A stretch of 64,000 nucleotides of DNA from an uncultured Micavibrio sp. (GCA_964350435.1 CAYGJS010000003.1:39168-103167), one strand, 5' to 3'. Numbered from the stretch's first letter, positions 2,636 to 25,442 are shown. The notes: generated from the letters alone by a model not told the origin. Program-made: numbers and translations.

Positions 2636-4744
2636 ATGCAAGAGCTTATCCGATCTCGAATATACAGCGTGCTCGCGGAAAACAGGACGCAGATTTTTTT
2701 GCTGACCCCTGTGTTTATGGGTATGGGGATTGCGGTTTATTTTTCACTGCGGTTTGAGCCGCCCTTTTATTTGGGCGCGGGTTTGGCGGCGTTGTGCCTC
2801 GTTGGCGTGTGGTTAACGCGCTCGCGTGATGCTTTGCGGATTGCGGTTTTGTTTTTGCTGTGCGGGTCTTTGGGGTTCATGGCGGCGCAAATAAGAACCA
2901 GCTTGATGCACTCACCAATTTTGGAGCGTGAGATTAAGACGACCGGGCTTGAAGGTCTTATTTTAGAGGTTGAAAATCTGGGGCTGGAGCAGGGGCAGCG
3001 GATTGTGCTTGGGGATTTGAGCATTGAGCGGCTTGCGCCAGAAGATACGCCGCGCCGCATCCGCATTAAAATTCGCAAGGATCAGGATTTGCAAACGGGG
3101 CAGCGGGTGAGTGTTTTGGCGGGGCTTAATCCGCCTGCGCCGCCGGCTTATCCTGGGGGCTTTGATTTTCAGCGTTATATGTATTTTAAGGGAATTGGCG
3201 CGATTGGTTTTAGTTATGGCAGGGTGGAGGTGCTTGAACCTGCCCGGCTTTCCGGCTTTGCGATGCGGGTAGAGGGGCTGCGTGCGCATGTGGGCGAGCG
3301 TATTTTACAAGTTTTGGTTCCGGAGCAGGCGGGCGTTTCAGCGGCTTTGATCGTCGGGCAGCGCGGCGCGATATCGGAAGAGGATCAGGAGGCGATGCGC
3401 GCTTCGGGTCTTGCGCATATGCTGGCGATTTCGGGTTTGCATATCGGATTGTTTTCGGGGGTGGTGTTTTTCTTTTTGCGGCTTTTATTGGTGAGCGTTC
3501 CTTACTGCGCGTTGAACTGGCCGGTGAAGAAGATTGCGGCTTTGGCGGGAATTGCGGCGGCGGTGTTTTATATGGTGCTGGCGGGTTCGACTATTCCCAC
3601 CCAGCGGGCGACGCTTATGAGCGGGATTGTGCTGTTTGCGATATTGCTTGATCGCACGCCGCTGTCCATGCGTTTGGTGGCCTTTGCGGCGGTATGTGTT
3701 TTGGCGATTGCGCCGGAAAGTTTGATGTCGCCGAGCTTTCAGATGTCGTTTTCTGCCGTGGCAGGATTGGTTGCGTTTTATGAATGGGCGGCGCCTTGGC
3801 TTCGGGCGCAATATCGGCAGAGCGGGGTTTTGAGGCGGGTGGGTTTATATGTAGCAGGGGTTTTTGCAACCACCGTGATTGCGACATTTGCGACTGCGCC
3901 GTTTGCGCTGTTTCATTTTCAGCAGCTCGCGCTGTATGGGGTGCTGGCGAATATTTTGGCGATGCCTGTGCTGACCTTTATTGTGATGCCGCTGTGTGTT
4001 TTGGCCTATGCGTTGATGCCGTTTGGGCTTGAGGGCTGGGTGCTGCCGATTATTGGGCATGGTGTGGATTTGATTTTGAAGATTGCGCATTTTGTGGCGG
4101 GGCTGGAGCATGCTTCGCTTAAGCCTGCGGCCTTGTCATTCGCTGCGTTTATGTTTTTTGTGGGCGGGGTGTTGGTGCTTGTTTTGCTTCGCGGCTTTGC
4201 GCGGGGGCTTAGTCTTGGGTTTTTTGTGGCGGCAGGCCTCGCGCTTTTGGTTCAGGTTCAGTCCATTATGCTGATTTCCTCTGATCTGAATTTGGTGGCG
4301 TATCGGGACAGAGGCGGCGCATTTTATGTGACGAATACGCGAAAGGATAAATTTACGCGCGGAATTTGGGAGCGGCGGTTTGGGCTGGAGGAAGGAGCAG
4401 GGGTTTTGTGGCCGAAAGAGGGGCAGGCGGGGGATGCGGCGTGCGGCGAGGGTGGTTGCCGCATTGAGACGCCTGAGTATAAGATTTCAGTGATCGAGCA
4501 AGAGCAAGCTTTGGCCGAGGAATGCGGCTGGGCGGATTTGGTGATTGTTCGAAAGGGGTATGATTTGAAGTGCGGCGATCAGGATAGCCCAAAGGTGATT
4601 GATCGTAAAAACGCCAAAGCCGAGGGGCCGTTCGGGGTTTATATTGGTGGTCCTTTGACGCTTCGATCTGTGCAAGCAGAGCGCGGCGTGCGTCCTTGGG
4701 TGGCGGGCACGGCGCGGTTTAATGGTAAGAGCGCATCAGACTGA
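2636..4744 (+). CDS. comEC: ComEC/Rec2 family competence (DNA internalization) membrane protein
   Basis: Long polytopic membrane ORF (track 2564..4744). ComEC core pattern [16 protein letters not shown]. The ATG at 2636 is preferred over the TTG at 2564, which overlaps the gltX start. Confidence 0.8.
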
Positions 4745-7243: not shown

Positions 7244-7803
7244 AATATATCCGTAAAGTTTTTCAGCATCTCGTGGCCATGTTCGGTTGCGATGCTTTCG
7301 GGGTGGAATTGGACGCCGTGGATCGGCCTGGTTTTATGGGTAAGACCCATGATGATATCGCCGCAGGTTGCCGTGATTTCGAGTTCATCAGGCAGGCTCT
7401 CGCTTTCGACGATCAGCGAGTGATAGCGCGTGACATCGAGGGGTGAGGGCAGGTCTTTAAACACGCTGTTATTGTCGTGGGTTACGGGGCTGATTTTACC
7501 GTGTTTGGGCGTTGTTTTAATAATTTTGCCGCCAAAGGCCTGACCTATGGTTTGATGGCCGAGGCATACGCCGAAAAGCGGGATGTCGTTTGCGGCGGCT
7601 TCTTTGACCAATTCGAGGCAAATGCCGGCATGATCGGGGTCGCTTGGACCGGGCGATATCATGATGCCTTTGGGCGTGCGTTTGAGGACGTCAGCCACAG
7701 TAATCTTGTCGTTTCGGTACACTTCACACGGGGTATTTAAATCCCCTAAATACTGCACCAGATTATACGTGAAGCTGTCATAGTTATCGATAAGTACGAT
7801 CAT
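7240..7803 (-). CDS. trpG: anthranilate synthase component II / aminodeoxychorismate synthase glutamine amidotransferase
   Basis: Track ORF 7240..7839. The ATG at 7803 gives MIVLIDNYDSFTYNL. Class I GATase motifs GVCLGHQ and HPES. ATGA overlap with trpD. Confidence 0.9.
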   Translation of the reverse strand: MIVLIDNYDSFTYNLVQYLGDLNTPCEVYRNDKITVADVLKRTPKGIMISPGPSDPDHAGICLELVKEAAANDIPLFGVCLGHQTIGQAFGGKIIKTTPKHGKISPVTHDNNSVFKDLPSPLDVTRYHSLIVESESLPDELEITATCGDIIMGLTHKTRPIHGVQFHPESIATEHGHEMLKNFTDIL

Positions 7804-19590: not shown

Positions 19591-20640
19591 GTGTCCGCCG
19601 CGAAATCAAAAAATACTCAATCCAAGAAGCAGGCTTCCTCGAAGGGTGTTTCAACAAAATCGAATGTTTCCACTGAGCCTACGGTAGAGGATCTCAAAAA
19701 ATATTACCGCGATATGCTTCTTATTCGCCGCTTTGAAGAAAAGGCGGGGCAGCTCTACGGGATGGGGTTGATTGGCGGGTTTTGCCATTTGTATATCGGG
19801 CAAGAGGCTGTGGTGACGGGGATTACTTCGGTGAATGAGCCGCAGGATACGGTTGTGACTGCCTATCGCGATCATGCGCATATGCTGGCCTGCGGGATGG
19901 AGCCGCGCGGCATTATGGCGGAATTGACGGGTCGTGAGGGCGGATATTCGCGCGGTAAGGGTGGATCGATGCATATGTTTTCCAAGGCAGAAGGGTTTTT
20001 CGGCGGCCATGGGATTGTCGGCGCGTCGACGGCGATTGGCACAGGGCTTGGATTTGCGCATAAATATAAGGGCGATAATGGCGTTGCTGTGGCCTATATG
20101 GGGGATGGAGCGTCTAACCAAGGGCAGGTCGCGGAATGTTATAACATGGCCGCGCTTTGGGATTTACCAGTTTTGTTTGTGATCGAGAATAATCAATACG
20201 GGATGGGAACATCCGTTAAGCGGTCTTCTGCGGGGACTTTGTACCGGCGCGGGGAGGGATATGGTATTCCCGGCGAGCAGGTGGACGGCATGGATATATT
20301 CGCTGTTCAGGCCGCTGCGCGTCAGGCGCTTGATTATATTCGCACCGGAAACGGGCCTTATATTTTGGAAGTGATGACGTATCGGTATCGCGGGCATTCT
20401 ATGTCTGACCCTGCGAAATACCGCACGAAAGAAGAGGTTGACGGCATGAAGCAGGATCGTGACCCGATTACGATGATCAAGGATATGCTTCAGGCGCGCG
20501 GGGTTGCCGAGGCGGATATCAAAGAGATTGATAAAGAGATTAAAGAGATTGTGAATGATGCGGCGAGCTTTGCGCAAGAATCCCCCGAGCCTGCGGCGGA
20601 AGAATTATGGACCGATGTCTTGGTTGAGGAGCGTGTGTAA
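19591..20640 (+). CDS. pdhA: pyruvate dehydrogenase E1 component alpha subunit
   Basis: 349 aa. TPP-binding pattern GDGASNQG...NNQYGMGT and YRYRGHSMSDP. Confidence 0.95.
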   Translation: MSAAKSKNTQSKKQASSKGVSTKSNVSTEPTVEDLKKYYRDMLLIRRFEEKAGQLYGMGLIGGFCHLYIGQEAVVTGITSVNEPQDTVVTAYRDHAHMLACGMEPRGIMAELTGREGGYSRGKGGSMHMFSKAEGFFGGHGIVGASTAIGTGLGFAHKYKGDNGVAVAYMGDGASNQGQVAECYNMAALWDLPVLFVIENNQYGMGTSVKRSSAGTLYRRGEGYGIPGEQVDGMDIFAVQAAARQALDYIRTGNGPYILEVMTYRYRGHSMSDPAKYRTKEEVDGMKQDRDPITMIKDMLQARGVAEADIKEIDKEIKEIVNDAASFAQESPEPAAEELWTDVLVEERV

Positions 20641-22080
20641 ATGCCAGTGAATATTTTAATGCCGGCGTTGTCGCCGACAATGACCGAAGGGAATTTGGCC
20701 AAGTGGTTGAAGGCTGAAGGTGACCGTGTGGATGCGGGGGATGTGATCGCCGAAATTGAAACCGATAAGGCCACCATGGAAGTTGAAGCTGTGGATGAAG
20801 GTATTTTGGGTAAAATTCTTGTCGCCGAAGGCACTGAAGGCGTAGCGGTGAATGATGTGATTGCGGTATTGCTGGAAGAGGGCGAGAGCGCGAATGATAT
20901 TGGCGAATATAAAAAGCCCTCACCCAACCCTCTCCCTGAGGGAGAGGGCAATGAAGCTTCGCCCTTAGGCGTTAGCGGAGTGGGCGAGGGGGGCGTTCAA
21001 CAACCTCAAGGGGCTGTGGTAGAAAATCGCGACATTTTATATGCGCAAGGGGTGGTGACACCGCCGCCGCCGTTTGACGAGGCGAGTTTTACCGAAACCA
21101 AGCCGATGACTGTGCGGGATTCTTTGCGTGATGCGATGGCTGAGGAAATGCGCGCCGATGATAGCGTGTATTTGATGGGCGAGGAAGTTGCGGAGTATCA
21201 GGGGGCGTATAAGGTTTCGCAAGGATTGCTCGATGAGTTCGGCGCAAAGCGCGTGATTGATACGCCGATTACCGAGCATGGATTTGCGGGTTTGGCTGTG
21301 GGGTCGGCGATGAGCGGCCTTAAGCCTATTGTTGAATTTATGACGTGGAATTTCGGCATGCAGGCGATTGACCATGTGATTAACTCGGCGGGGAAAACGC
21401 TGTATATGGCGGGCGGGCAGCTTGGGTGTTCGATTGTTTTTCGCGGCCCGAATGGCGCGGCCAGCCGTGTGGGCGCGCAGCACTCGCAGTGTTATGCGTC
21501 CTGGTATGCGCATGTTCCGGGTTTGAAGGTGGTTGCGCCTTGGTCGGCAGCGGATGCAAAGGGTTTGATGAAGGCGGCGATCCGCGATCCGAACCCGGTC
21601 GTGTTTTTGGAAAATGAAATGCTGTACGGCGAAACATTTGATGTGCCAACCGCCGAAGATTTCGTGATTCCTCTGGGGCGCGCGAAGATTGAGCGTGCGG
21701 GCGCGGATGTGACGATTGTTGCGTTTTCTATCATGGTGGGCAAAGCCCTGAAAGCGGCGGAGAAATTGGCGGAGATAGGAATTGATGCGGAAGTGATTAA
21801 CCTTCGCACCATTCGTCCGCTTGATCGGCATACGATTTTGGAGAGCGTCAAGAAAACCAACCGCATTGTGACCTGCGAAGAGGGCTGGCCATTCGCAGGG
21901 ATCGGCGCGGAGATTGCGGCGTTGATCGGCGAGCATGCGTTTGATTATCTGGATGCGCCGCTGGCGCGCGTACACGCCGCCGATGTGCCTTTGCCGTATG
22001 CGGCGAATTTGGAGGCTTTGGCCTTGCCGCAAGTCGATCAAATACTCCAAGCAGCGAAGAAGGTTTGTTATGCCGATTGA
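20641..22080 (+). CDS. pdhB: pyruvate dehydrogenase E1 component beta subunit with N-terminal lipoyl domain
   Basis: 479 aa. Lipoyl domain ([13 protein letters not shown]), Pro/Gly-rich linker, transketolase-like pyrimidine-binding and C-terminal domains. Confidence 0.95.
22070..22078. repeat. left copy of the direct repeat ATGCCGATT (putative target-site duplication)
   Basis: ATGCCGATTgA at 22070-22080 against ATGCCGATTaA at 22568-22578. Confidence 0.7.
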
Positions 22081-22567
22081 TTGTTCAAACGCGGAGATAC
22101 AGAGAAGCGGAGTGGTCTTATTGTAATGTCCAGTGTGCTTCGTAAGTATGATGATTTTTCATCTGATATGAATGTTCTGTCGGGCGCGATTGTTGATTGT
22201 GCGTTTCAGGTTCATAAAGAGCTTGGCCCCGGGTTTCTTGAAATGAATTATGAAGATGCCTTTGTTTATGAACTGGGATTAAAGGGTTTAGCATTTGAGC
22301 GCCAAAAACCTCTCAAAATTCCGTATAAAGAGGTTGTTCTTCATTCTGAGTTTCGTTTTGATCTGTTGGTTGAGGGAAGGGTTTTGGTTGAACTGAAAGC
22401 TGTGGAGAAAATTCATCCTGTTCATCAGGCTCAGATTTATGCCTATTTAAAAGCTACGCGGATTGAGCTGGGGCTTTTGATTAATTTTAATGTTCCACTT
22501 ATTAAGGATGGAATTGGCCGTTATGTGCTCCGAAACTCTGAAACTCCGCGTTTAAAAAAGGAAAATC
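22079..22567 (+). mobile_element. putative inverted-repeat-bounded cassette carrying GxxExxY gene 1
   Basis: Flanked by the ATGCCGATT direct repeat. Imperfect terminal inverted repeats AAACGCGGAGaTaCAGAG (22087-22104) and CTCTGaAaCTCCGCGTTT (22536-22553). CGGAG/CTCCG subterminal repeats are spaced 16 nt apart at both ends. The interior looks more AT-rich than the pdh genes. Confidence 0.5.
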
Positions 22568-22578
22568 ATGCCGATTAA
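22126..22578 (+). CDS. GxxExxY family protein (PD-(D/E)XK nuclease-like fold)
   Basis: GPGFLEMNYE (GxxExxY) and DLLVEGRVLVELK (D...ExK). ATG at 22126. The track ORF starts at the TTG at 22081. The last 15 aa are encoded by the right inverted repeat plus the duplicated junction. Confidence 0.85.
   Translation: MSSVLRKYDDFSSDMNVLSGAIVDCAFQVHKELGPGFLEMNYEDAFVYELGLKGLAFERQKPLKIPYKEVVLHSEFRFDLLVEGRVLVELKAVEKIHPVHQAQIYAYLKATRIELGLLINFNVPLIKDGIGRYVLRNSETPRLKKENHAD
22568..22576. repeat. right copy of the direct repeat ATGCCGATT (contains the pdhC start codon)
   Basis: Identical 9-mer to 22070-22078. Confidence 0.7.
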
Positions 22579-23842
22579 TGTGACGATGCCGGCGCTTTCG
22601 CCGACGATGACGGAAGGGACTTTGGCGAAATGGCTGAAGGCCGAAGGGGATAGGGTTGAGGCCGGTGACGTGATTGCCGAAATTGAAACCGATAAGGCGA
22701 CGATGGAAGTCGAGGTCGTTGATGAAGGGGTTTTGGGCAAGGTTCTCGTGGCGGCTGGCACCGAAGGAGTGGCCGTGAATGCGGTGATTGCGGTTTTGCT
22801 GGAAGACGGCGAGAGTGCGGGTGATATAGGTGATGCGTCATTGCGAACCGCAGGTGAAGCAATCCAGCCCAAAAAGGAAAAAGAGGTTGAGGTTGGTAAT
22901 GGATTGCCGCGTCGCGAAAATGCTCCTCGCAATGACGATTTTGATAAAGGGGCGCGTATTTTTGCATCGCCTTTGGCGAAACGGATTGCGGCGGATAAGG
23001 GAGTTGATCTCTCAAGTCTTAAAGGCTCCGGGCCGCGTGGGCGGATTGTGAAGGCGGATGTTGAGAATGCGAACGCGGGGGGCATTTCTGCTCCTGCTCC
23101 TGCGGTGGTTTCCTCTAAGGCTTTGCCAGAGGGGGCAAAGACCAATATTTACGGCATGGCTTATGTTGAGAAGCCGATCAATAATATTCAGAAAATTACC
23201 GCGAAACGCTTGCTGGAATCCAAAACTACGGTGCCGCATTTTTATCTGACGGTTGAGTGCGATCTTGAAAATTTGCTCGCTGCGCGTTCGGATCTTAATG
23301 AAGCCGCAAATGGTGCGTTCAAGTTATCTGTGAATGATTTTATCATCAAGGCCTCGGCGATGGCGCTGAAAGCCTATCCAGCGGCAAATGTGAGCTGGCA
23401 GGACACATCGGTGTATCAATATTTGACATCCGATATTTCGGTAGCGGTGGCAACGCCAAACGGTTTGATCACCCCGATTATCCGCAGCGCAGAGGAAAAG
23501 GGATTGCGCCAGATTTCCGATGAAATGAAAGCCTTGGCGGGGCGGGCTCGTGAGGGCAAGCTTAAGCCTGAAGAATTTCAGGGGGGCGGTTTTTCTATCT
23601 CGAACCTTGGGATGTTCGGGGTGAAGGATTTTGCCGCGATTGTGAACCCGCCGCAGAGCTGCATTCTGGCTGTTGGGGCGGGCGAGAAAATGCCGCGCGT
23701 TGTGAACGGCGAGATTGTCATTCGTACGGTGATGAATGTTACGCTTTCTACGGATCACCGCACGGTTGATGGCGCGGTTGGCGCGGAGTGGCTGCAGTTC
23801 TTTAAACGGTATATTGAAAATCCAGTGAGTATGCTGGTTTAA
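22568..23842 (+). CDS. pdhC: pyruvate dehydrogenase E2 (dihydrolipoyllysine-residue acetyltransferase)
   Basis: 424 aa. Lipoyl domain, E3-binding domain (ASPLAKRIAADKGVDL), catalytic domain with the DHRTVDG motif. Confidence 0.95.
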   Translation: MPINVTMPALSPTMTEGTLAKWLKAEGDRVEAGDVIAEIETDKATMEVEVVDEGVLGKVLVAAGTEGVAVNAVIAVLLEDGESAGDIGDASLRTAGEAIQPKKEKEVEVGNGLPRRENAPRNDDFDKGARIFASPLAKRIAADKGVDLSSLKGSGPRGRIVKADVENANAGGISAPAPAVVSSKALPEGAKTNIYGMAYVEKPINNIQKITAKRLLESKTTVPHFYLTVECDLENLLAARSDLNEAANGAFKLSVNDFIIKASAMALKAYPAANVSWQDTSVYQYLTSDISVAVATPNGLITPIIRSAEEKGLRQISDEMKALAGRAREGKLKPEEFQGGGFSISNLGMFGVKDFAAIVNPPQSCILAVGAGEKMPRVVNGEIVIRTVMNVTLSTDHRTVDGAVGAEWLQFFKRYIENPVSMLV

Positions 23843-23844
23843 AA

Positions 23845-24296
23845 TTTTTAACACGAAGCGAATAAGATGCACGAAGCTGTTCAGCGTTTAGAAACACCTT
23901 CTTTTGATTTTGAGCCATTATCAAGAGAGATTGTTGATTGTGCTTTCCAAATTCACCAGACTATAGGGGCTGGTTTGTTAGAGGGTGTTTATGAAGATTG
24001 TTTTGAGATTGAGCTGAAAAAGCGCAATATCGCTTTTGAGCGTCAAAAAATAATTAAGGTGGAATATGCAGGCGTTTTTATTCCGACAACATACAGGTTG
24101 GATTTGGTTGTCGAGGGCAGAATTATTGTTGAGTTGAAAAGCGTTGAAAAAATTATACGGGCTCATCAGGCTCAAATTCTGACGTATATGAAAACTTCTG
24201 ATATTAAAATCGGGCTTATTATAAATTTTGGAGATCCATATTTTAAATCAGGCGTTAAACGCTTCGTGTTATAACTTCTTTGCTTCGTGTTAAAAA
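23845..24296 (+). mobile_element. putative inverted-repeat-bounded cassette carrying GxxExxY gene 2
   Basis: Perfect 15-bp terminal inverted repeat TTTTTAACACGAAGC (23845-23859) / GCTTCGTGTTAAAAA (24282-24296). A nested second pair is CACGAAGC (23870-23877) / GCTTCGTG (24261-24268). Confidence 0.45.
23867..24274 (+). CDS. GxxExxY family protein (PD-(D/E)XK nuclease-like fold), paralog 2
   Basis: 135 aa. GAGLLEGVYE and DLVVEGRIIVELK. By eye, about half of the aligned residues are identical to the 22126..22578 product. Confidence 0.85.
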   Translation: MHEAVQRLETPSFDFEPLSREIVDCAFQIHQTIGAGLLEGVYEDCFEIELKKRNIAFERQKIIKVEYAGVFIPTTYRLDLVVEGRIIVELKSVEKIIRAHQAQILTYMKTSDIKIGLIINFGDPYFKSGVKRFVL

Positions 24297-24310
24297 AAGG
24301 AATTGTTATT

Positions 24311-24853
24311 ATGATCAATCGAAGGCCAATCGTCGGTGTTATGGGTTCGCATGAACATGAGTGGGAAGATTTTGCTGATCCTGTTGGGGATTTGCTTGCG
24401 CGGCGCGGGTTTAATCTGCTGACCGGTGCGGGCGAGGGCGTGATGACCTGCGTGGCGCGTGCGTTTACCCAAGTAAAGAACCGTGAGGGTGTGGCGATCG
24501 GGATTTTGCCGGCGGTGGATTACAAGGGGCAGAATTTGAATGAAGCGGAGTATCCTAATCCTTATATCGAAATTCCGATGATTACGCCGCTGTCTATGAA
24601 AGCGCAGAGTGATATTATGCCGTTTTCCCGCAATTTAACGAATGTTATGACGAGTAAGGCCTTGATTATTTTACCGGGATCGCATGGGACGAAGAACGAG
24701 GTGTCGCTTGCTCTTATGTATGACAAGCCAATGATATTGTTTGGGCCGGAGCACGCGTTTGATAGTTTTCCAGAGGAGCCCCTGCGCGCTGAAGACATTA
24801 CGCATGTGGCGCAGTTTCTGGATGATGTTTTCGGGAAGGATGAAGATGAGTGA
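24311..24853 (+). CDS. TIGR00725/LOG-family (SLOG superfamily) Rossmann-fold nucleotide-binding protein
   Basis: IVGVMGS...LLTGAGEGVMTCVARAF...ILPGSHGTKNEVSLAL, matching the LOG-type GxGxxG...PGGxGTxxE pattern. ATG at 24311 with an AAGGA RBS. Confidence 0.7.
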   Translation: MINRRPIVGVMGSHEHEWEDFADPVGDLLARRGFNLLTGAGEGVMTCVARAFTQVKNREGVAIGILPAVDYKGQNLNEAEYPNPYIEIPMITPLSMKAQSDIMPFSRNLTNVMTSKALIILPGSHGTKNEVSLALMYDKPMILFGPEHAFDSFPEEPLRAEDITHVAQFLDDVFGKDEDE

Positions 24854-25442
24854 GGTGCCGCTGGAATTTAACGCTGTCGGCGCAGAGAAGAAGTATCAAA
24901 AGCTGATTTGGGCGGGGGCTTTGTTTGTTGTCCTTGGCGCAGCGATGATGTTTGCTACGTTTATGTATTTCCATGGACAAGGGGCGTATGAAGAGGATGC
25001 GCCGCAGACGATCTATCCGATGCTGCCGCTGTTGCTTATTTTTATTCCGTTGTATGGATTGCGGATTTTTGGACAAGGCTTTGCGGAGCTCAGGCTTTTC
25101 AAGCGCACGGAACTCCGCGGTCTTAAGCTTGATAAAGATATGATCTCCGGTCCGGTTTTGTTATTGGAAGGGGTTTACCGGGAGAGGCTTTTGCAAAAAA
25201 AGGCACCGATTTTTTATTTTGAATGGGATGATATTCATAATTTTATTCTTGAACCTGTAAGAGGGAGTAAGAGTTATGGCTCGCCGCCATATTATAAAAT
25301 TACATTCAAGGAGCGCAGTGAGAAGGCGGAGAGCAGCTGTTTCATTATGCGCGAGTGTTTTAAAGAGCACGAAGCGGAAATTGTTAAATTTGTGACCAAG
25401 CGTCTGGGTAAGGCGCATGTGGTCAATAATGACCCAGTTTAA
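24840..25442 (+). CDS. hypothetical 2-TM membrane protein with a soluble C-terminal domain
   Basis: Two hydrophobic helices (LIWAGALFVVLGAAMMFATFMYF; IYPMLPLLLIFIPLYGLRIFGQGF). The start (ATG 24840 or 24846) overlaps the stop of the upstream LOG-family gene. The long track ORF from 24741 is an upstream extension. Confidence 0.55.
   Translation: MKMSEVPLEFNAVGAEKKYQKLIWAGALFVVLGAAMMFATFMYFHGQGAYEEDAPQTIYPMLPLLLIFIPLYGLRIFGQGFAELRLFKRTELRGLKLDKDMISGPVLLLEGVYRERLLQKKAPIFYFEWDDIHNFILEPVRGSKSYGSPPYYKITFKERSEKAESSCFIMRECFKEHEAEIVKFVTKRLGKAHVVNNDPV

Follow-up and report, generated by a model that had tools for sequence, protein, structure and literature searches.

We analysed a stretch of 64,000 nt from an uncultured Micavibrio sp. 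(GCA_964350435.1 CAYGJS010000003.1:39168-103167; hereafter the window, with positions counted from its first letter), in which the pdh operon is interrupted between pdhB and pdhC by a promoterless cassette of ~480 bp. This first cassette, denoted E1, carries a single gene for a GxxExxY (PDDEXK_3) protein with a nuclease fold of the PD-(D/E)XK type, and a second cassette with a related gene, denoted E2, follows pdhC; these two labels are unrelated to the enzyme components E1 and E2 encoded by the operon itself. For comparison, 80 homologous pdh loci were recovered from related alphaproteobacteria, and ~25 further GxxExxY loci from metagenomes and genomes were surveyed. W denotes the window and L-numbers denote the compared loci; coordinates of the features are collected in Table 1.

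The nonamer ATGCCGATT is found on both sides of the cassette, at 22070-22078 and again at 22568-22576, and the 12-mers at the two junction copies, TATGCCGATTGA and CATGCCGATTAA, are the same at 10 of 12 positions. In the window pdhB terminates as CYAD-TGA, and at the right copy the stop codon of the GxxExxY open reading frame (ORF) overlaps the ATG of pdhC in the frame that the ancestral pdhB used. Deletion of 22079-22576 in silico gave the junction GTTTGTTATGCCGATTAA, and exactly this sequence was found in L121, an in-clade relative (PdhB 76% identical) which carries the second cassette and is without the first. In L121 the junction reads ...GGTTTGTTATGCCGATTAAagtactaATGCCC, pdhB ends CYAD-TAA and pdhC begins inside it with an overlap of 11 nt, and the identity to the junction reconstructed from the window extends over 18 nt (the L121-type junction is written GGTTTGTTATGCCGATTAAAGTACTAATG, and the ancestral 11-nt pdhB-stop/pdhC-start overlap TATGCCGATTAA). 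The same layout with an 11-nt overlap was seen in two Micavibrio-like loci, L004 and L005 (TATGCCGCTTAA and TATGCCGCATAA). The contig of L005 (DASPMW010000194.1) is labelled as a Patescibacteria metagenome-assembled genome, yet its pdh operon is alphaproteobacterial and Micavibrio-like, with almost the same layout as in L004, and the contig is probably mis-binned. The left junction copy is a relic of the ancestral pdhC start overlapping the pdhB stop.

A GxxExxY gene within 6 kb was found at none of the 80 related pdh loci, most of which have a pdhB-pdhC spacer of only 12-35 nt. At the 62 non-overlapping junctions, the longest string common to the pdhB end and the pdhC start measured 2-5 nt in 61 cases and 7 nt in one, compared with 9 nt in the window. 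In the sole control junction above 5 nt, that of L021 (~7355-7380), two copies of GTCATGA lie 13 nt apart, one where pdhB stops and one where pdhC starts, perhaps through a minor un-overlapping duplication of the L120 type (see below). Because empty junctions exist and the controls share at most 7 nt, the duplication is real and the ancestral junction was overlapping and translationally coupled. An initial annotation, made from the window sequence alone, had reported the 9-mer at both junctions and had predicted both the empty junction left by removal of 22079-22576 and a discrete insertion with pdhB and pdhC intact; all of this is borne out by the relatives and by the control junctions, none of which reaches 9 nt. 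We consider it highly probable that E1 arrived as an insertion and that the junction duplication is genuine.

E1 is bounded by an inverted repeat of 32 nt, 25 of which are complementary, and this repeat ranks first of all inverted repeats in the window at spacings of up to 700 nt. Each arm is composed of three C(G/A)GAG units with 8-nt spacing, with CGGAG at 22092 and 22108, CTCCG at 22528 and 22544, and a CAGAG/CTCTG unit between each pair. The last GGAG of the left array is likely the Shine-Dalgarno sequence of the GxxExxY gene, and the right array overlaps codons of the non-domain tail LRNSETPR of its product. The ORF passes through the right arm and ends at a TAA overlapping the pdhC ATG, its last 7 codons being a lineage-specific read-through to that TAA. 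A 1-nt difference in the right arm (TTT vs TT; window 22556-22578, L117 ~970-994) permits this read-through, and in lineages other than the window and L117 the ORF stops inside the arm (...SETPR-stop). An equivalent of the AAGGA that precedes pdhC was found 3' of the right arm in 7/7 orthologous insertions, and the GC content is 0.40 for the insert, 0.55 for pdhB and 0.53 for pdhC. The CGGAG/CTCCG repeats, the AAGGA, the AT-rich insert and the ORF running through the right arm were thus all as first annotated. The terminal inverted repeats described there do bound the element, but they are longer than was noted (32 nt) and are three-unit arrays under purifying selection instead of simple transposon ends.

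Ten E1-related elements align without gaps, and their arms have a mean column identity of 81% with invariant CGGAG cores, despite synonymous divergence (Ks) above 1; the arms are under purifying selection. Two arm positions co-vary cleanly, one with GC pairs in six elements, AU pairs in four and no unpaired case, the other with GC in nine and AU in one, and the covariation score of the arms was above 499 of 500 shuffles and above every slid control. In the same ten elements one inter-unit spacer is essentially never complementary, which argues for iterated binding motifs instead of a continuous helix. Taken together, sequence conservation, iterated units, subfamily-specific units and the unpaired spacer argue for sequence-specific recognition of the arms by a trans factor, for which the encoded nuclease is the obvious candidate.

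In predicted RNA folds, both minimum free energy and centroid, the arms of E1 also pair and close the whole ORF. Mismatches between the arms on the sense strand comprise 16 G.U against 7 A.C, a hint at pairing within the sense transcript (or sense single strand). The geometry of the modelled fold puts the stop codon of the upstream gene and the ribosome-binding site of the next gene at the foot of the stem, which suggests that translational coupling is kept and that the cassette's own Shine-Dalgarno sequence is masked. A signal scan revealed no promoter or terminator belonging to the cassette; the layout of T run, stem and A run does not fit a terminator, as on either strand the stem comes after the T run. 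Searches of 21800-24600 with the covariance models of Rfam 15 gave noise only at E values up to 10. Two further readings of these sequences failed: the ...GTGGTTCAA ends of some elements resemble a tRNA T-arm and have no closing stem, and the units could be taken for Shine-Dalgarno repeats in the case of CGGAG, but not of CACTAAG or CGCAAAG.

The E1 protein exceeds the family cut-offs by far (PF13366, 135.6 bits against 22; TIGR04256, 141.7 bits against 35), as does the E2 protein. Across 42 aligned homologues the GxxExxY motif G36-E39-Y42, which reads GFLEMNY in the window, is invariant, together with E49, E89, K91, Q103 and Y107, and D79 is found in 90% or more of these homologues. The predicted catalytic residues D79, E89 and K91 are intact in E1. 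An AlphaFold (AF2) model (pLDDT, the predicted local distance difference test, 87.6) has the element order helix-helix-strand-strand-strand-helix-strand with a PD-(D/E)XK core. The top Foldseek matches were all PD-(D/E)XK proteins, though weak (E at least 3e-3), namely Cas4 (4ic1), lambda exonuclease and RecE, and a tRNA-intron endonuclease was also among the weak structural neighbours. No PDB match was obtained by single sequence or by family profile, and therefore a link to I-Ssp6803I or TnsA could not be made. PF13366 is the only Pfam match of the cassette protein, with no DDE, HUH, serine or tyrosine transposase, and the alignment and the model uphold the first description of a PD-(D/E)XK-type protein as the sole cargo. 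Ka/Ks values of 0.07-0.16 and the invariant residues indicate that the E1 protein is functional. A defence or phage gene is not indicated, as PADLOC returned only a marginal Cas4-like match and PHROGs none. A profile search found 37,250 cluster representatives of the family at E up to 1e-3 (clusters at 50% identity), and tandem two-domain GxxExxY proteins of ~275 aa are numerous among them (e.g. P0240-P0255).

The pdhB/pdhC site is likewise filled by close homologues of the E1 protein (67-80% identity) in L081, L082, L085, L086, L117 and L118. With the window included, seven lineages have the insertion, and the trees of PdhB and PdhC group these hosts. Orthologous cassettes show Ks of 1.1-2.4, i.e. 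saturated, and Ka/Ks in the range given above. The E1 insertion is old, mostly vertically inherited and under strong purifying selection, and a reading of it as a recent hop needs correcting. The same holds for AT-richness as a sign of recent arrival: GC content at third codon positions (GC3) of the GxxExxY ORF was 0.2-0.4 below that of both flanking genes in 12/12 cassettes (window and L081-L121), and the difference persists in orthologous copies whose synonymous sites are saturated. The low GC is a lasting feature of these genes, not a relic of recent transfer.

The pdhB end reads YAD-stop in W (TATGCCGATTGA), YAG-stop in L118 (TATGCGGGTTAA), YA-stop in L081 (TATGCCTAG), YKD-stop in L085, YQD-stop in L117, YK-stop in L082 and YV-stop in L086, so the left junction copy has decayed to differing degrees among the E1 lineages. 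Where GCC or GCG is kept at the variable codon of this copy, it goes back to the ancestral overlap, in which ATG-CCG forces that codon. The protein subfamily of E1 is also found at the pdhA/pdhB junction of a sister clade (L083, L084, L106, L107), and no E1-subfamily cassette is present in L001.

Several natural alleles bear on how the cassette comes and goes. L120 is closest to the window in gene order, is nested inside the E1-bearing clade and is without E1; its junction, TATAAGGATTAA-AATACA-ATGACTATCAAT, has both junction copies 6 nt apart and is colinear with the window flanks after removal of the arm-bounded segment. This junction is either a clean loss at the arm boundaries which kept both copies, or a 17-nt un-overlapping duplication able to exist without a cassette. 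Among 19 well-bounded elements, flanking repeats of at least 7 nt were found in the window (9 nt), L085 (8 nt, AAGGATTA) and L081 (7 nt), and those of W and L085 each match an empty allele of a relative, L121 and L120 respectively. Removal of the element and one repeat copy from L085 yields the L120-type junction with the same 6-nt spacing and different spacer bases (ACGATT in L085, AATACA in L120). Two metagenome contigs, L118 (860-1303) and L119 (472-915), from samples 3300036762 and 3300036765, encode an identical GxxExxY protein, and L119 is without exactly the 28-nt left arm kept in the otherwise identical L118, the deletion lying between GTTT microhomologies; L119 is a natural arm-less allele. 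Cassettes are occasionally lost (L120), suffer arm deletion (L119) or decay to ORF-less hairpins (L082, L083).

The second cassette has the same architecture. It begins 2 nt past the pdhC stop and is bounded by a perfect 15-nt inverted repeat, TTTTTAACACGAAGC (23845-59/24282-96), with an extra ACGAAG unit on each side, the inner unit of the left array overlapping codons 2-3 of the ORF; its inverted repeats rank 4th and 5th in the window. Its protein is 49% identical to that of E1. L120 and L121 have orthologues of E2 at the corresponding position, L086 has an empty site there, and loci with E2 relatives are directly after pdhC in 3/3 cases. At the E2 site of L082, in the pdhC-lpd spacer, lies an ORF-less hairpin (~3775-3895) of CGAAG/CGGAG units, which looks like a deletion derivative of E2, since the two have in common a T-run/AAC start and a AAAAAGGAAT end. 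An ORF-less hairpin of CGAAG/CGGAG units was also found in the pdhC-lpd spacer of L083 (~7500-7570).

Most of the ~25 further GxxExxY loci are enclosed by inverted arrays of 2-4 iterated units each, among them CGCAAAG x3, CACGAAG x3, CACAGAG x3, CACGGAG, CACTAAG and CACATAAG. The inverted unit arrays stood out with z = 5-39 against shuffles at 14 of ~21 scanned loci and were present at 6/6 additional loci. Unit sequence tracks protein subfamily (CGGAG, ACGAAG, CACTAAG, CACAGAG, CGCAAAG): C(G/A)GAG is present in all E1 relatives of at least 58% identity, and ACGAAG in the E2 relatives. The outer termini tend to (T)GAAC.../...GTTC(A). Cassettes are co-directional with their neighbour genes; the left arm mostly starts 0-10 nt past the upstream stop, and the 8-20 nt between the right arm and the next start codon include a Shine-Dalgarno sequence. 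Besides the pdh operon, contexts include fabA/B/I and aroC. L108 holds two different cassettes with different unit sequences (1265-1721 and 2968-3424; fabA-[G]-fabB-[G]-fabI, with G for the GxxExxY gene), L111 has fabA-[G]-fabB, and in L113-L116 a cassette lies upstream of aroC (4HBT-[G]-aroC). E1 relatives of at least 65% identity are in the pdh operon at 11/11 loci, seven at pdhB/pdhC and four at pdhA/pdhB, and 10/11 are directly upstream of the 5' end of a lipoyl domain (the exception is L107). In general, GxxExxY genes appear to be operon-junction cassettes bounded by inverted arrays. We found no published description of them as such, which agrees with the view first taken that these cassettes are undescribed; literature searches gave nothing on the mobility or architecture of GxxExxY, PDDEXK_3, PF13366 or TIGR04256, and the sole functional statement found was "Unknown... 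multiple transfers".

Table 1. Features of the pdh operon and of its two GxxExxY cassettes in the window.
Feature	Position	Strand	Remarks
pdhA	19591-20640		
pdhB	20641-22080	+	E1 beta with N-terminal lipoyl domain; Pfam Biotin_lipoyl + Transket_pyr + Transketolase_C
Left junction copy, ATGCCGATTgA	22070-22080	+	same undivided junction found in L121
Cassette E1	22081-22559		
E1 left inverted array	22081-22112	+	TTGTTCAAAC-GCGGAG-ATA-CAGAG-AAG-CGGAG; three units, 8-nt period
GxxExxY/PDDEXK_3 nuclease-fold gene of E1	22126-22578	+	150 aa; PF13366, TIGR04256
E1 right inverted array	22528-22559	+	CTCCG-AAA-CTCTG-AAA-CTCCGCG-TTTAAAAAA
AAGGA, Shine-Dalgarno sequence of pdhC	22558-22562	+	5 nt before ATG; read from sequence
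Right junction copy, ATGCCGATTaA	22568-22578	+	start codon of pdhC, overlapped by the stop of the E1 ORF
pdhC	22568-23842	+	E2 dihydrolipoamide acetyltransferase; Pfam Biotin_lipoyl + E3_binding + 2-oxoacid_dh
Cassette E2	23845-24296		
E2 left inverted array	23845-23877	+	TTTTTAACACGAAGC...ATG-CACGAAGC; begins 2 nt past the pdhC stop
Second GxxExxY gene, of E2	23867-24274	+	135 aa; PF13366 141.5 bits, TIGR04256 140.2 bits
E2 right inverted array	24255-24296	+	CGCTTCGTGTTA...GCTTCGTGTTAAAAA; then AAGGA and start of the SLOG gene at 24311

The surroundings of the cassettes vary as well. Within 20641-20870, the first ~50 nt of pdhB are the same as the pdhC start at 38/50 positions, judged by eye, and therefore the pdhA/pdhB and pdhB/pdhC cassette sites have downstream sequence in common; the N-terminal lipoyl domain of PdhB is present in all related loci too. 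Between pdhC and lpd the window has a SLOG (LDcluster4) gene and an unannotated ORF of 233 aa (24311-25442); the SLOG gene is common to L120 and L086, and in L081, L082 and L121 lpd comes directly. The pdhB-pdhC gap is 260-550 nt in L013, L016, L044, L050, L056, L061, L068, L069, L071, L073 and L080, and unrelated small ORFs of 85-180 aa fill this junction in relatives from the Rhizobiales, Rhodobacterales and Caulobacterales; it is a general hot spot for the insertion of small genes. Another insertion in the pdh operon with the gene restored by duplication was seen in L081 (2192-2545), where an unrelated 90-aa ORF, probably membrane-spanning, is inserted after pdhB codon 12 between two identical, directly repeated 36-nt copies of the pdhB start, ATGCCAACGAATATTTTAATGCCGGCGTTGTCGCC.

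The first cassette entered an overlapping pdhB/pdhC junction that is now present on both sides of it, and therefore both essential pdh genes stay intact. Whether E1 is a site-faithful, nuclease-encoding insertion cassette with arms recognised by its own protein is, in our estimate, an even question, although we place this reading ahead of its rivals; that the GxxExxY nuclease is the mobility enzyme of the cassette seems slightly short of that. In such a model the nuclease would recognise the repeated units of the two arms, whether these are double-stranded DNA or folded into a hairpin or cruciform, and would cut at the conserved (T)GAAC.../...GTTC(A) termini, giving rare insertion and excision. 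A short staggered cut of the target at insertion would produce the 9-11-bp duplication. In the polycistronic mRNA, the paired arms would place the upstream stop beside the downstream ribosome-binding site and sequester the cassette's Shine-Dalgarno sequence, so that expression of the operon would hardly be affected by the insertion and little nuclease would be made.

A number of observations weigh against this model. Flanking repeats of at least 7 nt are absent at 16 of the 19 elements, whose repeats of up to 6 nt are within the null range, and L120 has a duplicated junction without the element. Since L120 keeps both copies, the duplication may be an excision footprint or older than the insertion, and the odds that it arose in the insertion event itself look balanced to us. 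The target-site-duplicating cassette of the initial annotation is plausible in view of the 9-, 8- and 7-nt repeats in the pdhB/pdhC group, but it is unproven given the elements without repeats and L120. No sign of recent movement was seen: where one genome has two copies, these differ widely (49% identity in W, different units in L108), each subfamily stays at one operon for very long with extreme site fidelity, and the 64-kb window holds no unit arrays besides those of E1 and E2. The family is rare on plasmids (8 of 72,556 records) and viral contigs (3 loci), which is atypical for active transposons, and these records are too few for target duplications to be scored on young copies. Conservation of the right arm could be due in part to its coding role. 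Nuclease, binding or transposition activity is shown for no member of the family in the searchable literature, where its function is listed as unknown. The model also leaves unexplained why the E1 subfamily is found at two different junctions of the pdh operon, each just before the 5' end of a lipoyl domain, and why GC3 stays below that of both neighbours despite long residence.

Extreme site fidelity is what a free-standing homing endonuclease would produce. Such an enzyme would cut cassette-less alleles of the junction and be copied in by double-strand-break repair, and the arrays would act at the RNA level only, in coupling or self-repression. PD-(D/E)XK homing endonucleases are known, e.g. 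I-Ssp6803I. The pdh-bound E1 relatives (11/11) and the E2 relatives after pdhC (3/3), the alternation of presence and absence between close relatives, the rarity of the family on plasmids and in viruses, and the codon of the left flank (GCC, AAG, CAG, GTG), which varies off-tree and is compatible with co-conversion of the flank, all go in this direction. Genes of this kind, however, are normally without conserved element-specific iterated inverted arrays and without ORF-less hairpin derivatives, and the arms are conserved in sequence beyond what pairing alone asks for. Purifying selection beyond Ks 1 at a fixed site also runs against the homing cycle, which predicts decay after fixation, and the protein has no sequence match to solved structures including I-Ssp6803I, its fold matches being generic. 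We hold homing to be unlikely.

Long vertical inheritance and strong purifying selection would also be expected of a domesticated, host-maintained and immobile gene, with a role for the nuclease in repair, defence or RNA processing. On this view the arms would form a stem that serves mRNA processing or regulation (e.g. as an RNase III site or a coupling device), and a separate, minor tandem duplication would have given rise to the repeated junction. In its favour, the cassette lacks its own promoter and is transcribed along with the neighbouring genes, its arms pair in the predicted RNA fold with sense-strand G.U exceeding A.C mismatches, a duplicated junction exists without the element in L120, and unrelated small ORFs occupy the same junction in other alphaproteobacteria. 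A resident host gene accounts poorly, on the other side, for the patchy distribution among close relatives with clean absence at the arm boundaries, for the different housekeeping operons invaded per lineage, sometimes twice in one operon, and for a GC3 of 0.2-0.4 under that of the host genes. Moreover, element-specific units follow the protein subfamily, ORF-less hairpins exist, and an RNA stem alone needs neither invariant iterated units nor a never-paired spacer. In our judgement domestication is rather improbable.

That the 9-mer repeat is due to a chance match of a common type of pdhB C-terminus (Y-x-D-stop, TAT NNN GAT TRA) with a conserved pdhC start (ATG CCG ATT), the cassette having inserted between the stop and the ribosome-binding site with nothing duplicated, is very improbable: GAT-TGA or GAT-TAA does end pdhB in unrelated alphaproteobacteria (e.g. 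L047, L015), a match is needed only at the middle codon GCC, other orthologous insertions have AAG, AAA, CAG or GTG there, and most other elements are without flanking repeats, but 0/62 control junctions have 9 nt in common, L121 is identical to the reconstructed junction over 18 nt, and GCC/GCG in W, L081 and L118 as well as wherever the overlap forces it (L121, L004, L005) is best explained as a relic.

Among known systems, the cassette by analogy most resembles REPIN-RAYT in behaviour and free-standing homing endonuclease genes in placement. In REPIN-RAYT systems, genes of REP-associated tyrosine transposases have inverted REP sequences on both sides; like them, the cassette has one small gene within cognate inverted hairpin-forming repeats, long vertical inheritance, purifying selection, little presence on plasmids, ORF-less hairpin derivatives in intergenic spacers and a repeat that co-evolves with the protein. 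Unlike REPIN-RAYT, its enzyme is a GxxExxY protein of the PD-(D/E)XK fold and not an HUH/Y1 (IS200/IS605-like) transposase, its arms are arrays of 2-4 iterated units of 5-8 nt, the 64-kb window has no dispersed population of solo repeats, and the cassettes lie inside operons directly past stop codons. With the homing genes (seg and mob of phage T4; I-Ssp6803I) it shares a small nuclease gene placed between conserved genes without disrupting them, patchy occurrence at the same site with intact empty alleles (L121 and L120 for E1, L086 for E2) and a PD-(D/E)XK core; it differs in its conserved inverted arrays, in having no similarity to I-Ssp6803I or solved structures, and in purifying selection for far longer than the homing cycle predicts.

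Insertion sequences, transposons and miniature inverted-repeat transposable elements (including those with ends of the Tn7 or Mu type, which carry several subterminal repeats bound by the transposase) are alike in their inverted ends, conserved termini, iterated subterminal units, miniature ORF-less derivatives and clean empty sites in relatives, and the 9-11-bp flanking duplication of the window fits them as well. Unlike these elements, the cassette encodes none of the DDE, HUH, serine or tyrosine transposases, most copies are without flanking duplication, no near-identical copies occur within a genome, fidelity to one site is extreme, and plasmid copies are rare. The intervening sequences of 23S rRNA and the Correia/ERIC elements are likewise co-transcribed inserts closed by a long stem which joins the host flanks, with a loop that either contains an ORF or is ORF-less, whereas the hosts of the cassette are protein-coding operons and its stems consist of iterated element-specific units. 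Integron cassettes with attC are similar in being promoterless single genes dependent on host transcription, with imperfect palindromes that have ...AAC/GTT... outer motifs and an unpaired internal spacer. An attC reading was rejected, because the palindrome encloses the ORF and does not stand beside it, neither an integrase nor a cassette array is present, and the core site (RYYYAAC/GTTRRRY) is only loosely matched.

A wider proposal is that the GxxExxY (PF13366) family comprises the enzymes of an unrecognised class of autonomous insertion cassettes, which would recognise their own arrays, insert after operon stops with ~9-11 bp of duplication, excise cleanly and keep the mRNA coupled by its fold; we put this forward tentatively, and it leans towards the doubtful. 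If true, such a cassette would be a 'polite' operon parasite, built on a nuclease fold not known as a stand-alone transposase. The locus itself offers natural alleles, occupied (W), empty (L121), footprint-like (L120) and arm-deleted (L119), by which the mechanism is testable. Even if the cassette is immobile, a stem joining stop codon to ribosome-binding site would be a case of an operon tolerating an insertion in a coupled junction. If the cassette reading is true, a biological role could be assigned to a very large protein family, and many small genes interrupting conserved operons, in the Alphaproteobacteria and in other phyla, would be explained. A PD-(D/E)XK nuclease with short, iterated, subfamily-specific units would then join the mobile-element enzymes, and such proteins could serve as programmable or site-specific DNA tools. 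The family may represent selfish DNA cassettes of a kind not yet described.

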